Virus record (IMG/VR): IMGVR_UViG_3300037722_001090
DNA: 64,000 nucleotides
Strand: one strand, 5' to 3'
Source: a virus
Taxonomy: Duplodnaviria > Caudoviricetes
Part shown: positions 4,735 to 16,918 of the stretch, one piece after another
Position numbering within the stretch: position 1 is the stretch's first letter
How the letters are laid out: the number at the start of each line of letters is the position of its first letter
The notes under the pieces: model-generated
The model's input: the letters and a program-made list of their open reading frames with translations, nothing else
Databases searched by the model: none
Told to the model about the DNA's origin: nothing
Position numbers and translations under genes: made by a program

Positions 4735-5925
4735 TTATCCTTTTAATTGTATTAGAAATTTAATAGTACTTTGATCTTGATTATAGGTAATATATTCATT
4801 ATTGATTAAATCAACACCGCCTTTAGCAAATAGAGAATCATAATCTCCTTTTACTTTAAGCTGAGTTTCATTAAGGCTACCCATCCAAGATTCTCTTCTT
4901 TGGACATCTAGGCTATTGCCAAGATGAACGTCAAACAAAGCCATGATAGCTTCATCTGCACTGCCATTGGCCCAATATGAGCCTCTTCCAGATGTATATC
5001 CATATGATTTTCTTGCTTTATCGGCAAAATAAGTACCATATCCGAACATCTTACCAGAAATAACAGCATTTGTAGGTCTTAGAACAAGACCTGTTTCCAT
5101 AATAGATAGCCAGTTTTCATTACGGCTACCATGGAAAAACATTTCTGTTCTTTTATTTTTTGATTTAGCTACCCAATCATCAAATCGTTTTTGTGTTTTA
5201 TGATTTGTAATACTAAATGCATTATGGAACTTACCTTCAATATCTCCTAGTTTCCCACGAATAGCATTGCGATCAATATCACTAACATTTGACAAGCTTA
5301 GACCCATAGCATCAAGAATAGTTAATTTATCATCAACATTCTCACGCGTAAGTACCGCTTGTTTAACCTGAGAAGACATTGTATCGAGTAGTGCCTGCTC
5401 TCTTACTAGAAGAGGATTAAGTTTATCTGGAGAAAACTCTTTAAGTAGATAATCTTTTACATTACTCATTATGCGAGGAATAACCTGATAAAGATCAATA
5501 AGTAGCTTATTCGTCTCAGGTAAGTCATCAGCTTTCATTAAGGCATTCAGCAATGATTGAGCTTCCTCAACCTGTTTTTGCGTAACAGCACTTGCTGACA
5601 CATTATAAAATGCTGCAACCTCTTTACGTGCATATGCCTGTAGTCCAGCAATAAATCGACTAATAGCAATATCACTAATATCTTGAAAGTCAACTATTTC
5701 ACTAGTGTCTTCAATACATAGGTTAGTAATGTCTTTATATCCTTTAGCTATCTTCTCTCTATAAGTCTTTTCCCACCTACTATTAGGGTAAGTCTTTTTT
5801 TGACTACTAGCACCAACACGACCGAACTCAGCAAGGAAACTTCCATCTCCAGAGTCAGTCATATTATAATATTTATTATTATTTGCATCACCAGTAACCA
5901 TCATTAATTTAATCATTTTAGCCAT
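4735..5925 (-). CDS. WGR-domain poly(ADP-ribose) polymerase-like protein
   Basis: N-terminal NNNKYY..EFGRVG; catalytic FHGS, GKMFGYGTYFA, KSYGY, NEYITY; start set at MAKMIKLM. Confidence 0.88.
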   Translation of the reverse strand: MAKMIKLMMVTGDANNNKYYNMTDSGDGSFLAEFGRVGASSQKKTYPNSRWEKTYREKIAKGYKDITNLCIEDTSEIVDFQDISDIAISRFIAGLQAYARKEVAAFYNVSASAVTQKQVEEAQSLLNALMKADDLPETNKLLIDLYQVIPRIMSNVKDYLLKEFSPDKLNPLLVREQALLDTMSSQVKQAVLTRENVDDKLTILDAMGLSLSNVSDIDRNAIRGKLGDIEGKFHNAFSITNHKTQKRFDDWVAKSKNKRTEMFFHGSRNENWLSIMETGLVLRPTNAVISGKMFGYGTYFADKARKSYGYTSGRGSYWANGSADEAIMALFDVHLGNSLDVQRRESWMGSLNETQLKVKGDYDSLFAKGGVDLINNEYITYNQDQSTIKFLIQLKG

Positions 5926-5946
5926 ATATTTACCTTTAAAATAAGC

Positions 5947-6033
5947 TGGAGGAGAGTACTGGACTTGAACCAGTAGAGCTTTTAAGCCCCGACTGTTTAG
6001 CAAACAGCTTCCCTACCATTAGGCGAACTCTCC
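5947..6033 (-). tRNA. tRNA-Ser(GCT)
   Basis: Loop TTGCTAA, long variable arm, CCA. Confidence 0.92.
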
Positions 6034-6039
6034 ATTCCA

Positions 6040-7164
6040 CTACTTAAATAAAAATTTAACAATCGTATCAGCACTATTGCGCCATACTTTTTCTAATATA
6101 TCTTTAGACTGAAACTGACCATGTTCTTTACGTAAGCTAAATATAATACCAGTAAAAGGAGTTTTAACTGGCGTATCTTTAGTTACAAAAATAGCAAAAG
6201 ATTTTTGATCTTCATACACCTGAGAAAACGACCAAACAAAGTACAAATCAAGATATGCCATTTGCATCTTAGCTTTAACTTCAGCCATTATATCTGCTAC
6301 TTCAGGAAAATAAGTAAGAACTTCATCTTCTTCGCCTGCAAGAATAAAAGGAATAATATTTTTAGGAAGAAAAATATTATCATTACCCTTAAGCTGATGT
6401 AGCGCAACGTATGTTTTGCTTTTAATTTTCATTCGCAAACCATTTACATCACGAACAACGATACCTTCAAAAGTAGGATCCGACTCTTCTTTCTCATTCA
6501 GAAAAGCAATAACCTCATCAGTATCTTTAAATTTATGAGATTCTGGTCTTTTAAAGTTATGTACTTTTGCGATTACATCGCATAGCCTTGTACTAAATTC
6601 AAGAAGCAATTCATCATATATATGAAATATAGTCAGTAAAATTGCTTTAGATTCAGGATATAGTCGAACTATTTTATTCCATATAGAACAAAACTCAAAT
6701 ACAAGACAAATATCATCCGCAGCCGTAATCTCGTCTGCAGTTTTACCAAGAGCTTCCCAAAAAAATTCAGCCCAAGTCTTACCGCATTCATGAATATTAT
6801 ATTCAGCAAAAGAACCACGAGTATTTACTCTCCAAGTTCCATTATAGTTATATAGAAGAATCAAAGATCCATCTTCTTTATCAAGAGCAGTAGATCCTTC
6901 CCAAACAAATTTATTAGTAATTTCAAGAGCTTCACCGGCATTAAAGAAGCGATTAAAAGCTTTAGCTACAACTTTCCATGTATCTATCTCAAGGACAAGT
7001 CCACGACATTCCATAACAATTGGAAGCATTTTTTGAGATTCAATTTGGTCATAATTAAGGATAACTAAAGGATCTACTGGATGCTTAACCACTTTAATTC
7101 CAAAATGAACAGTAAGGTCTTCCAAAGTCTTACCGTTAAGCAAATATTCTTGTACATGTAACAT
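6040..7164 (-). CDS. T4 Rnl1-like RNA ligase
   Basis: KEDGSLI motif I, FEGIVVRD and KIKS motifs. Confidence 0.85.
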   Translation of the reverse strand: MLHVQEYLLNGKTLEDLTVHFGIKVVKHPVDPLVILNYDQIESQKMLPIVMECRGLVLEIDTWKVVAKAFNRFFNAGEALEITNKFVWEGSTALDKEDGSLILLYNYNGTWRVNTRGSFAEYNIHECGKTWAEFFWEALGKTADEITAADDICLVFEFCSIWNKIVRLYPESKAILLTIFHIYDELLLEFSTRLCDVIAKVHNFKRPESHKFKDTDEVIAFLNEKEESDPTFEGIVVRDVNGLRMKIKSKTYVALHQLKGNDNIFLPKNIIPFILAGEEDEVLTYFPEVADIMAEVKAKMQMAYLDLYFVWSFSQVYEDQKSFAIFVTKDTPVKTPFTGIIFSLRKEHGQFQSKDILEKVWRNSADTIVKFLFK

Positions 7165-7318
7165 AATTAGTCCCTTAAAATCTGAATGTAGCACAAATAT
7201 TAATACCTGCAGCAAAAATCCAATAAAGAGACATCCTAATATCTCCTTTTATCAAATACGTAATACTAGCTATAGTCATTAATGTTATGATAATTAAAGG
7301 AAAGATCTTTTCCATAAG

Positions 7319-7846
7319 TTAAATTACTTTCAAAAACCTACTGACAAGTTCCATATCATCAAACACATCATTGCCTGCAGAGTTATTTCGTATTACATAA
7401 GCAGGATGCCATGTAGCCATTAATGGAACACCTTGGTATGAATGCCATTTACCTCGCAATACAGAAATAGCATTACTTTTACCACTTAAGAACTGAGCAG
7501 CAAACTTACCAAGTGTAATAATGACCTTAGGTTTAACCTCTGCTATTTGACTAATAAGGTAAGGAGTACAGGCAGATATTTCATCAGGCTCAGGATTTCT
7601 ATTGCTAGGAGGTCTACATTTACAAATATTAGCAATATAAACATCTTCTCTCTTAACACCAAGAACTTTAATATATTTATCTAACATCTTACCTGATTGC
7701 CCACAGAAAGGCACACCAGTAGCATCCTCAGTAGCCCCAGGAGCCTCTCCAACGAACATAATGTCAGCAGTAATACTACCGCTACCAATTACAATATTAG
7801 TTCGTGTGTTATGAAGTTTACATTTCTTACAGTCTGTAATTATCAT
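7319..7846 (-). CDS. uracil-DNA glycosylase, family 4
   Basis: CKKC, VGEAPG, CRPPSNR, TWHPAY. Confidence 0.93.
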   Translation of the reverse strand: MIITDCKKCKLHNTRTNIVIGSGSITADIMFVGEAPGATEDATGVPFCGQSGKMLDKYIKVLGVKREDVYIANICKCRPPSNRNPEPDEISACTPYLISQIAEVKPKVIITLGKFAAQFLSGKSNAISVLRGKWHSYQGVPLMATWHPAYVIRNNSAGNDVFDDMELVSRFLKVI

Positions 7847-7850
7847 CTTA

Positions 7851-8132
7851 TCACCACCTAAAGCAAATACTAGTATATGGATCTCTTTGATCACCATGTG
7901 AAACTTCTACTGTATATCCATCTACTTTAAGTAATGTTTTTACAAGTGCTTCCTGAGTATAACTTAAACGGATAGGATTAGTTCCTGTAGTAGCCCAACT
8001 GCCAAGCGAAATACTGGTTTTACCGGCTTTAGCAGCATCTATAATTCTATCATTAAGCCATTCCATGAATAGCTTTATATTATTATTATCTACATTTTTT
8101 GATAATTCTTTAGCCATAGATGCTTTAATCAT
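7851..8132 (-). CDS. hypothetical protein
   Basis: ORF from MIKASMAKE with an AGGA RBS. Confidence 0.6.
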   Translation of the reverse strand: MIKASMAKELSKNVDNNNIKLFMEWLNDRIIDAAKAGKTSISLGSWATTGTNPIRLSYTQEALVKTLLKVDGYTVEVSHGDQRDPYTSICFRW

Positions 8133-8148
8133 GTCCTTCTCCAATATT

Positions 8149-9579
8149 TTACAGTTTATTTTTATCAAATACAGGACGTAGACTTTCAACCCTAGGACAA
8201 GACATAACTCCTTCATCCTTAGTGAATTCTTGGCTTGTACAAATAACAATGCGATTCATAAAAGAGTCAGGATCAGCAGCAAACTCAAGCTTAAATGCTC
8301 TAGTCAACAATTTACCAGTACCAACGCCCGATCTCTTAAGTTCGCCTCTGTCATTAATATACTCAACAATAAGCCTCCCAAGCATAGGAGGATATGGAGT
8401 ACCATCAGTCTTATAAGATGTTTTAGCTACTTCCCAACCTACAATCTTACAGTCAACAGGTTCAGTTTTACATTTAATCTTGATCTGACTATTGTCTTTA
8501 GTAAATCCATACTTGCCATTACCAGCCTTAAGGACAATACCCTCTTTACCTTCAGAGATAAGCTTATTGGCAATAACATAAGCTTCTGCTTTATTGGAAA
8601 CCTTCTCACCAACAACAATAGCAAGTCTTTGGTTATTTATAATCATTGGCTGGACAGTAGTGAGTAGATACTCTCTTCTAACATCATATTCATCAGGAAT
8701 TGATTCAGAATCAAACTCATCTCTATCAAGAATTTCAAAGATTTTTACTTTAATTCTAGAGGCAATATCTTCCATCTCAGCTTTACGCTTAAGATATTTA
8801 GCCCAGCCAGAGCCAACCTTGCCAGTTTTACCTTTAAAATCATTTTCAGTTTTAGTAAAATCAAAACCAGAAAAAGATTGAATTTCTTCTAGATTATCAT
8901 CACATTCTACTTCACAATCTACAACTTTATTCTTAAGATTAAGTTTCTCGATAAAAGTATTTAGAAAACTAAAGTTTTCAATAGGCAAACCAGATCTTCC
9001 AATAGGAGACTTTAGTTCACAGAATGGAGTTCTATCAATCCTACCATCAGTATCAGTATACCAAAAAGTCCTGAAGCCATTAATCTTATGTCCAGGATAT
9101 GCCCCTCTTGTATAATCCATCTTATCAATAGATGCTTCAGATTTAGCACCAGAACAATTAAAGTCAAGGATTAACTTTTCTTCAAATGCAGCATTAACAA
9201 TAGCACCACCAATACCAATACTGGCAAGATCTTTCTGAAGACATTTAACATACCATTTCTTTTCATAATTAGTACAAGTAATAAGAAAGTTATTAATTGC
9301 ACCAAGAGCATTATGTCCAGTGAGAGATCTATTTCTAAGGCTATTAGTTAATATTACAAAATTATCCCACGTACTAAGACCCATTTTCCCAAGATAAGTT
9401 TCATTATCTACAGGTTTAATCTCTTTAATGCCAAACGTAACACGATCATCCATCGCCAAATAAAGAAACTCTTTAAGATGAGCAGTTTCTGCATTATCTT
9501 TCAAGAGCTTTTTTTTATCATTAGTTCCAGTTGTTTTTTCTAACTCTTCAAGTATACGAATAAACGGATTTCTTAGCAT
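8149..9579 (-). CDS. ATP-dependent DNA ligase
   Basis: HKINGFR (KxNG), VDCEV, EGIVLK, KIKCK, SCPRV; T4-like N-terminal domain. Confidence 0.85.
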   Translation of the reverse strand: MLRNPFIRILEELEKTTGTNDKKKLLKDNAETAHLKEFLYLAMDDRVTFGIKEIKPVDNETYLGKMGLSTWDNFVILTNSLRNRSLTGHNALGAINNFLITCTNYEKKWYVKCLQKDLASIGIGGAIVNAAFEEKLILDFNCSGAKSEASIDKMDYTRGAYPGHKINGFRTFWYTDTDGRIDRTPFCELKSPIGRSGLPIENFSFLNTFIEKLNLKNKVVDCEVECDDNLEEIQSFSGFDFTKTENDFKGKTGKVGSGWAKYLKRKAEMEDIASRIKVKIFEILDRDEFDSESIPDEYDVRREYLLTTVQPMIINNQRLAIVVGEKVSNKAEAYVIANKLISEGKEGIVLKAGNGKYGFTKDNSQIKIKCKTEPVDCKIVGWEVAKTSYKTDGTPYPPMLGRLIVEYINDRGELKRSGVGTGKLLTRAFKLEFAADPDSFMNRIVICTSQEFTKDEGVMSCPRVESLRPVFDKNKL

Positions 9580-10326: not shown

Positions 10327-10362
10327 TGGTGCCCCTGGTAGGATTCGAACCTACGACAAGTG
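10327..10362 (-). pseudogene. 3' half of a disrupted tRNA (probably Arg)
   Basis: GTAGG-TTCGAAT-CCTAC-CAGGGGC-A-CCA; pairs with the 5' half at 11086-11117. Confidence 0.85.
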
Positions 10363-10408: not shown

Positions 10409-10987
10409 ATGTTAGTAAAATGTAAAAATTGCAATAAAGAATTTGATAAAATACCAAGTCAAATTGCAAAATCTAAAAATAATTTTTGTTCTAAATCATG
10501 TAGTGCAACATTTAACAATAAAGGTAAGCAGCGTAATCCACCAAAGATAAGAATTTGTAGACAATGTAGTTTAACATATACGTATAAGCGAAAAGAAAAC
10601 ACATTAACTTTTTGCTCTAACTGCCTTAATACACTTAAAATAGATCGCAATAAAAACATAAGTTTTGTTTCAGAACAAATTAAGCAACTCACAATTGGAG
10701 AATATCGAAATAAAGAATCCGTAAAAAGCAAACACCCATCATGGAAACATGCTCATATTCGTATACTTAATAGATCGTGGAATGCAGATTTAACTAAAAT
10801 ACCATGTCAAAACTGTAAATATGATAAACATATTGAACTATGCCATATTAAATCTGTAGCATCATTTAAAGACAATGCAGTGCTATTAGAAGTTAATAGT
10901 CCAGATAATAATCTTGTACTTTGCAGAAATTGTCATTGGGAGCTTGATAATAATATTATTAAGATTGAAGATATACCTAAAAGATAA
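10409..10987 (+). CDS. HNH homing endonuclease with Zn ribbons
   Basis: CQNC..HIELCHIK..NLVLCRNCH; antisense insert inside a tRNA gene. Confidence 0.9.
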   Translation: MLVKCKNCNKEFDKIPSQIAKSKNNFCSKSCSATFNNKGKQRNPPKIRICRQCSLTYTYKRKENTLTFCSNCLNTLKIDRNKNISFVSEQIKQLTIGEYRNKESVKSKHPSWKHAHIRILNRSWNADLTKIPCQNCKYDKHIELCHIKSVASFKDNAVLLEVNSPDNNLVLCRNCHWELDNNIIKIEDIPKR

Positions 10988-10990
10988 TAA

Positions 10991-11075
10991 TGGAGCGCCC
11001 TGGAGGAATCGAACCTCTCACATCCATCCAACTTTTTATGTACGGGTTTAGAAGACCCGTGTTGGAGCAGGGCGC
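10991..11075 (-). tRNA. D-armless tRNA-Arg(TCT)-like gene
   Basis: GCGCCCTG/CAGGGCGC-T-CCA; ACGGGT-CTTCTAA-ACCCGT; D arm replaced by CTCCAAC. Confidence 0.75.
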
Positions 11076-11085
11076 ACTACCTTAA

Positions 11086-11117
11086 ACCTTCTGCTCTATC
11101 CGCTGAGCTACAGAGGC
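11086..11117 (-). pseudogene. 5' half of a disrupted tRNA (Arg-type D loop)
   Basis: GCCTCTG-TA-GCTC-AGCGGATA-GAGC; acceptor complements 10327-10362. Confidence 0.85.
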
Positions 11118-16304: not shown

Positions 16305-16323
16305 TGGAAGAGGGTGTGGGATT
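16305..16323 (-). pseudogene. 3' remnant of the old tRNA-Ser
   Basis: AATCCCAC-ACCCTCT-T-CCA; complements the 5' half at 16885-16918. Confidence 0.75.
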
Positions 16324-16741
16324 AAAAATTTTGTAATTCACTAATAACCCAACTCTCTTTATTTTTTCCTGCATATTTACTGGCAATATCGCGAATACAA
16401 ATAGCTCTACCTGCATTAATTCGATCAGACTTAATAAAGCAGACCTTATCATTTGATTGAATATAAATAGCAAGAATATCGCATGTAGAAAAATCAAACT
16501 TAACAATATTATTAGCTGTTTTATTTGATCGTACTGATCCTATTTGAACAACATAAGAGCCATATTTATCTATAACACTAGTGCCTTTAACCGAGATTCT
16601 AAAAATAACACCATCTTTATATGCAATAAGATCAAATGGCGCTTTTCCAGAAGTTTGAGTAAATACATGATAATCTAATTCTGTAAGTCTAGCAGCTACT
16701 TTTAATTCAGATAATGATCCTAATTTAGTTTTATTGTCCAT
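16322..16741 (-). CDS. PD-(D/E)XK endonuclease (freestanding homing type)
   Basis: G..SEL.VAA.L, PFDLIA, ISVKGT, DILAIY. Confidence 0.82.
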   Translation of the reverse strand: MDNKTKLGSLSELKVAARLTELDYHVFTQTSGKAPFDLIAYKDGVIFRISVKGTSVIDKYGSYVVQIGSVRSNKTANNIVKFDFSTCDILAIYIQSNDKVCFIKSDRINAGRAICIRDIASKYAGKNKESWVISELQNF

Positions 16742-16761
16742 AATTATCTCCAAGTAAGTTG

Positions 16762-16848
16762 TGGAAGAAGCGGGGAGACTCGAACTCCCATGCCTTAACA
16801 GACATACTGCTTTTCAAGAGCAGCTCCTCATCCAGCCGGATCGCTTCC
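16762..16848 (-). tRNA. tRNA-Ser(TGA), cassette-borne copy
   Basis: CTGCT-CTTGAAA-AGCAG, long variable arm, CCA. Confidence 0.9.
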
Positions 16849-16859
16849 ACATGAATACT

Positions 16860-16869
16860 TGTTAATAAC
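16860..16869 (-). promoter_or_regulatory. GTTATTAACA motif
   Basis: Upstream of the new tRNA-Ser plus endonuclease. Confidence 0.65.
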
Positions 16870-16884
16870 TGCAACCTGTTGCCT

Positions 16885-16918
16885 AAACTAGTGACTTAAT
16901 CCTCTCGCCCAACCCTCC
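16885..16918 (-). pseudogene. 5' half of the old tRNA-Ser
   Basis: GGAGGGT-TGGGCGAGAGGATTAAGTCA-CTAGT, then broken. Confidence 0.8.

Follow-up and report, generated by a model that had tools for sequence, protein, structure and literature searches.

A conserved family of phage tRNA-like genes with two crossing helices and a displaced D-loop-like segment, including putative tRNA-Arg(UCU) genes

Can an RNA without a D hairpin between its acceptor and anticodon arms still serve as a tRNA? The question is raised by an element in the window, i.e., the whole 64,000-nucleotide stretch of DNA analysed here, which is phage DNA with about 35% G+C and 24 tRNA calls by ARAGORN. None of these 24 calls covers the element, and Rfam missed it at the gathering score. 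Its best Rfam match, tRNA-Sec (RF01852), was rejected with 33.8 bits against a cut-off of 47 and an anticodon that is UCU, not UCA. The tRNA-like domain of tmRNA was also rejected, as an anticodon arm and a G3-C pair are present and no tmRNA call was made. An earlier note had proposed a D-armless tRNA-Arg(UCU) with a possible pseudoknot at this position, and a tRNA-like element is indeed present there, on the minus strand. The anticodon arm and CCA are intact as described, with a 6-bp stem, UCU in a 7-nt loop, and an encoded CCA. The fold of the element has a z of -3.6 against shuffles. Two JGI assemblies, one of them possibly the source of the window, contain it without a single base difference, and an exact-motif scan of viral contigs for the window's own sequence gave no match.

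The strands of the element are arranged in an unusual order (Table 1). From the 5' end, 8 bp of acceptor strand and two nucleotides are followed by the 5' strand of a helix termed Pa, the anticodon arm, the 5' strand of a helix termed Pb, and an A-rich linker. The 3' strand of Pa, ATGGA, the 3' strand of Pb, GA, the T arm, the second acceptor strand, U, and CCA complete the molecule. No D hairpin lies between the acceptor and anticodon arms. The variable insert, previously given as 22 nt, measures 24 nt after the 6-bp stem. Within it, GTTGGA had been described as the complement of a CTCCAAC connector; the helix is real, but the complement covers six of the seven connector bases, and five pairs (CCAAC/GTTGG, Pa) are conserved. 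A 6-nt match in a single sequence is reached by about 2% of shuffles, so the homologues decide on the pairing. The pseudoknot exists as well, although the pairing named for it encloses the anticodon hairpin and is nested. Pa on its own extends the anticodon helix, and the fold is a pseudoknot because the 3-bp Pb crosses the 5-bp Pa.

Table 1. Features of the element, of its surroundings in the window, and of the shorter form at other loci
Feature	Position	Strand	Description
Putative rewired tRNA-Arg(UCU)	10991..11075	-	85 nt, 8/4 acceptor branch, U73-CCA
Acceptor stem, 5' strand	11068..11075	-	Pairs with 10995-11002, 8 bp; 8/8 pairs with two-sided changes, 99.8% paired
Pa, 5' strand (surrogate D stem)	11061..11065	-	CCAAC, partner 11028-11032; 99.7% paired
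Anticodon arm	11042..11060	-	6-bp stem, 7-nt loop 11054-11048, UCU 11052-11050
Pb, 5' strand	11039..11041	-	ACA, partner TGT 11020-11022; 99.4% paired; crosses Pa
Pa, 3' strand	11028..11032	-	GTTGG; covariation with 11061-11065
Displaced D-loop-like segment A-N-G-G-A	11023..11027	-	ATGGA in the window copy
T arm	11003..11017	-	4-bp stem, TTCGA T loop; feature imposed by the search patterns
Orphan 5' half of a canonical Arg-type tRNA	11085..11117	-	Acceptor strand, intact D arm with GGA, anticodon-stem 5' strand
Predicted HNH endonuclease gene	10409..10987	+	192 aa; Pfam HNH_2 E 5e-4, narrowly short of the curated cut-off
Orphan 3' half of the same canonical tRNA	10327..10362	-	T arm, acceptor strand, A-CCA
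Shorter 7/5 rewired tRNA-Arg(UCU) form (putative)	L197:2060-2137; L047:6205-6287; L016:7560-7642	-; +; -	

Homologues are widespread among phages. By BLAST, 347 GenBank phage records match at least part of the query, among them T5-like Vibrio phages, T4-like Acinetobacter and Aeromonas phages, Escherichia phage Av-05, Salmonella phage Arash, and the jumbo phage SCTP-2. RNA annotation for the element was absent from 11 out of 11 GenBank phage records examined. The first pattern scans used a 3'-side anchor with GG imposed and left anticodon and helices free; they yielded 61 distinct members with Arg anticodons (57 UCU and 4 CCU) and 21 members with GUA, CAU, or UAU anticodons. CCA is encoded in 58 of the 61 Arg-type members. 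In the second scan, the anticodon loop and T arm served as anchors, the middle was free, and GG was not imposed. It gave at least 43 further members; the distinct homologues number more than 100 in total. The real members found by the pattern scan in GTDB genomes number just three (Vibrio, Spirabiliibacterium, and a MAG) and are probably prophage or phage DNA. The element belongs to a real, conserved family of tRNA-like genes with a non-cloverleaf fold. The window copy scores 98 bits against the family model, by construction. No description of the family was found in the literature searched, most subscription and older papers lying outside the search; the family could be an unnamed entry among the more than 10,000 candidates in the supplements of a structured-RNA screen (PMC10690425).

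The family also includes members with other anticodons and arrangements. Rewired tRNAs with a CAU anticodon and no encoded CCA occur at loci L016, L037, L056, L081, L083, L100, L103, and others, and rewired GUA (Tyr) members at L013, L021, L044, L091, and L137. Some genomes hold two rewired Arg genes, either CCU and UCU in tandem or UCU and ACG (L029:1449-1627; L080:302-387 and 2515-2601). Canonical-shaped CUA (amber) tRNAs were seen at L335 (Acinetobacter phage phi1_092060) and L336 (Salmonella phage Arash). Phage T5 carries a stable RNA IV, which we take to be tRNA-Arg-like. As an RNA of unexplained role from the tRNA cluster of a phage (NC_005859 rnaIV), it is comparable to the element. It was rejected as a family member, having a different sequence and no match to the family model.

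Covariation was assessed in a plain MAFFT alignment of 59 distinct Arg-type sequences, in which 99.5% of cells pair and 19 out of 26 pairs show two-sided changes; every helix that varies shows covariation. None of 500 shuffles reached the observed covariation values, and pairing dropped to 36-49% in slid registers. The earlier note had named conservation of the connector pairing in homologues as its own check. The pairing is conserved, with 99.7% of Pa cells paired and three of five pairs compensatory; one position alone shows five pair types. For Pb, 99.4% of cells are paired and 3/3 pairs are compensatory, two of them strongly. When 3,916 column pairs were ranked by corrected mutual information, two Pa and two Pb pairs fell within the top 14. 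The eighth acceptor pair, belonging to the 8/4 branch, covaries in the same alignment. As shuffles ignore relatedness, a tree-based test of joint changes was added, with the tree built without the Pa and Pb columns. On this tree, which is short and weak, Pa and Pb partner columns changed jointly 9, 13, 4, and 11 times, about the same as singly, whereas mismatched columns gave 11-18 changes, close to additive. This contrast agrees with that of the acceptor and anticodon stems. Covariation shows a consensus fold at base-pair level, with two crossing helices, that is conserved in the family. Two further pairs were rejected, a sixth in Pa, which forms in 5 of 59 homologues, and a fourth in Pb using the A after GG, which is paired in 20 of 59.

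The D arm looks moved rather than lost. The description of the element as D-armless is correct in that the hairpin is missing, but D-rewired fits better because a D-loop-like GG and A lie 3' of the anticodon arm. The order A-N-G-G-A after the 3' strand of Pa is that of A14, G18, G19, and A20 in a normal D loop, and this order suggests that the bases at 11023-11027 may be their equivalents in space. The first connector base, comparable to U8, is U in 46 of 59 sequences and C in the window copy, and the A14-like base is A in 57 of 59, as expected for a U8-A14 contact. In the 7/5 form, a textbook D-loop sequence is found at the same place, on the 3' side of the anticodon arm. In 61/61 members with an Arg anticodon (UCU or CCU) and in one ACG member, GG is followed by A, while it is followed by U or C, never A, in 21/21 members with GUA, CAU, or UAU anticodons; as the non-Arg members form a few near-identical groups, this A-versus-U contrast rests on a few independent events. 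GGA occurs in 41 (automatic count) or 42 (by eye) of the 43 second-scan members listed.

Bacterial Arg identity consists of A20, C35, U/G36, and a discriminator A, G, or U73 (PMC9976931 Table 1), A20 being the main determinant for E. coli ArgRS (PMC9976931). In the family, the 7-nt anticodon loop contains U33, C35, U/G36, and A37, and the T loop and CCA are present. The discriminators match the bacterial set, with G in 33, U in 14, and A in 12 of the 59 sequences; a C discriminator was found in two of the 43 second-scan members listed.

Compared to canonical tRNA-Arg(UCU) (RF00005; Bennett gt022, T5), the element is alike in the UCU of its 7-nt loop, T loop, CCA, 12-bp acceptor branch, and Arg-type discriminators, and in its genomic slot, when GRLPWR is compared with Bennett. 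It differs in the missing D hairpin, in being 8/4 and not 7/5, in lying below RF00005 detection, and in a D-stem equivalent whose two strands flank the anticodon arm and which a second helix crosses. Non-canonical tRNAs in PMC7609411 and PMC5389517 vary in arm length or lose arms while keeping the cloverleaf strand order. The D-armless mitochondrial tRNA-Ser (PMC7609411) likewise has no D hairpin between acceptor and anticodon arms, but it is shortened and has a flexible linker, whereas the connector of the 85-nt element is paired and covarying and its GG lies elsewhere. The D-armless tRNA review (PMC7609411) mentions neither phages nor pseudoknots. The (8/4) allo-tRNAs and (8/4) tRNA-Ser/His (PMC5389517) share an 8-bp acceptor and 4-bp T stem, a long variable region, and occurrence in phages with the element, and 8/4 tRNAs function in E. 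coli (PMC5389517). Unlike the element, allo-tRNAs have a tRNA-Sec-like long D stem with a tetraloop, a long V arm, and Ser identity, and no pseudoknot is mentioned in the allo-tRNA paper (Mukai et al., PMC5389517).

The genomic context shows a pattern in which canonical tRNA-Arg(UCU) genes are replaced by the rewired gene in phage genomes. Vibrio phage Bennett carries a canonical tRNA-Arg(UCU) gene (gt022) exactly where its relative GRLPWR carries the rewired gene, with identical flanks. Canonical Arg(UCU) genes were sought by pattern search, with doubtful matches checked by ARAGORN or by eye. They are absent from 9 out of 10 complete genomes carrying the rewired gene, Aeromonas phage Aszh-1 having both, and T5, the positive control, has the canonical gene only. 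A canonical gene with the matching anticodon is missing from all eight loci with five or more tRNAs. Since phages can do without their tRNAs, a missing canonical gene is no proof of replacement. Of the 578 Arg codons in the 56 long ORFs of the window, 173 (30%) are AGA.

In the window, the rewired gene lies within the remains of another tRNA gene. It starts 9 nt behind the orphan 5' half of a canonical Arg-type tRNA. An HNH gene comes next, arranged tail to tail with it, and the orphan 3' half lies behind that gene. The earlier note mentions neither this cassette nor the split tRNA. The outer acceptor strands pair 7/7, and the D arm of the 5' half matches phage genes annotated mostly as tRNA-Arg. 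The outer anticodon-stem strands are paired at 3/5 positions and UCU is absent at both junctions; with the anticodon region of the window halves decayed, the identity of the broken gene rests on the Arg-type D loop and on parallel cassettes. The same order with matching halves recurs at L109, L124, L135, and L150 (7/7), and by eye at L107 (7/7) and L059 (6/7). Several cassettes retain TCTAA anticodon remnants, which identify the broken gene in those cassettes as tRNA-Arg(UCU), while others have decayed halves. An uninterrupted outer tRNA gene, i.e., a cassette-free allele, was not found by a sequence scan.

Features of free-standing homing endonucleases were found, as the gene has a predicted nuclease domain, is intron-free, and is tied to tRNA genes. 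The insert consists of the rewired tRNA and the ORF, and no group I or II intron core was matched in it by Rfam. An HNH gene lies directly behind the rewired gene (25 nt or less) in 16 of 61 Arg-type copies, and in 45 of 61 none is adjacent. The adjacent proteins form three groups without BLAST matches to each other. A 40%-identical relative of the window HNH protein is encoded directly behind another rewired tRNA. Relatives of the window HNH protein have a canonical Arg(UCU) gene next to them in four loci and a rewired gene nearby in two. The layout fits homing in the manner of SegB, in which a nuclease would break the resident tRNA gene and bring a replacement. SegB of T4/T6 is likewise encoded next to tRNA genes; it cleaves inside tRNA genes and takes neighbouring ones along as it spreads (PMC2330249, PMC13096335). 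It differs as a GIY-YIG enzyme, the window gene being an HNH gene that lies inside a split tRNA gene and beside a replacement tRNA of different topology. Homing cassettes may sometimes have spread the rewired RNA; most copies have no adjacent nuclease, so the RNA is not just cassette cargo.

The element is probably a working, rewired phage tRNA-Arg(UCU) that reads AGA, and AGA decoding is indirectly supported by the slot swap, the near mutual exclusion with the canonical gene, and the A20-like base tracking Arg anticodons. A rather unlikely alternative with the same fold is a tRNA mimic outside translation, which would divert tRNA-cutting host defences or toxins as a decoy, or bind ArgRS off the ribosome. 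Host defences do cut tRNAs and phage tRNAs counter them (PMC10264068, PMC13096335), odd tRNAs that are charged yet unused in translation exist (PMC5389517), the core is far from a cloverleaf, and Aszh-1 holds both forms in one genome. A decoy, however, would need neither slot-for-slot replacement of the canonical gene nor CCA, a 12-bp branch, Arg-type discriminators, and a post-GG base matched to the anticodon. That the complementarity arose by chance in a decayed pseudogene, to which the 2% shuffle frequency in a single sequence would still give room, has next to no probability and is refuted by covariation, since more than 100 distinct homologues share the layout and carry compensatory changes.

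Two more readings give the RNA a different product or a different amino acid. According to one, the insert would be removed from the RNA with the inner tRNA as processing signal, and the outer halves ligated to a canonical tRNA, possibly by a phage RNA ligase. The outer halves do retain an intact D arm, T arm, acceptor (7/7), and CCA, and an Rnl1-type RNA ligase gene is present at 6040-7215; yet with anticodon-stem strands only 3/5 paired, UCU at neither junction, no group I or II intron model match, halves at all stages of decay in other cassettes, and flanking halves absent from most family members, such ligation is very unlikely. At least as improbable is a missense tRNA, charged by SerRS through a long variable region like that of allo-tRNAs and placing Ser at AGA. 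The 8/4 branch and long variable region are common to both, and G or U73 is common. The variable region here, however, is tied into the pseudoknot and forms only a 3-bp helix where a long arm would have to protrude. The A20-like base also goes with Arg anticodons, and the rewired gene substitutes for tRNA-Arg genes.

For the AGA-reading tRNA, the following mechanism is proposed from the arrangement of strands. The 5-nt strand before the anticodon arm would take the place of D-stem strand 22-25, and its Pa partner in the variable region that of strand 10-13. Docking of the displaced GG on the T loop would form the elbow, and the A20 pocket of ArgRS would receive the last A of A-N-G-G-A. With its 12 bp (8/4), the acceptor branch would be suitable for RNase P, EF-Tu, and the ribosome. 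The rewired gene may have arrived in the window phage with the HNH homing endonuclease, in a cassette inserted at the anticodon of a resident Arg tRNA gene. It would then supply the lost tRNA function, probably without containing the nuclease target.

Other unusual tRNA-related features were observed in the window. Five permuted units lie on the minus strand (about 31990-31870, 31820-31710, 30965-30860, 30200-30080, and 38275-38160), and in each of them a shared GTAGATAAGAGTTACTTC-like motif precedes a T arm and acceptor strand, while a tRNA 5' half comes last. Acceptor strands pair 7/7 in the two units checked by eye, and no unit has an Rfam match; presumably they resemble YrlA-type Y RNAs. 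In a tRNA at 53406-53531 (minus strand), an insert of about 50 nt replaces the anticodon loop and folds into two hairpins. An orphan 5' tRNA half at 22047-21940 (minus strand) stands directly before a complete tRNA(CAU) and is possibly another swap cassette. A PD-(D/E)XK nuclease gene (16305-16918, minus strand) adjoins a tRNA gene missed by ARAGORN, and genes for a WGR-PARP, a T4 Rnl1-type RNA ligase, and an ATP-dependent DNA ligase occur at 4735-9579 (minus strand).

The family is common in cultured phages yet carries no RNA annotation in the records examined, so phage tRNA counts are biased. Tentatively, phages may carry a parallel class of translating non-cloverleaf tRNAs for Arg (UCU, CCU, and ACG) and also with GUA, CAU, and UAU anticodons. 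It is conceivable, with the same reserve, that the pseudoknot restores the L shape and repositions synthetase determinants such as A20. A possible selective benefit, no more certain, is that rewiring evades homing endonucleases that cut tRNA genes as well as host defences that cut tRNAs. Bennett with its canonical gene and GRLPWR with the rewired one are a natural pair that makes the question directly testable, and the rewired fold may give a new scaffold for engineered tRNAs. If a pseudoknot-threaded tRNA does satisfy ArgRS, EF-Tu, and the ribosome, then the L shape, and not the cloverleaf, would be what translation requires.
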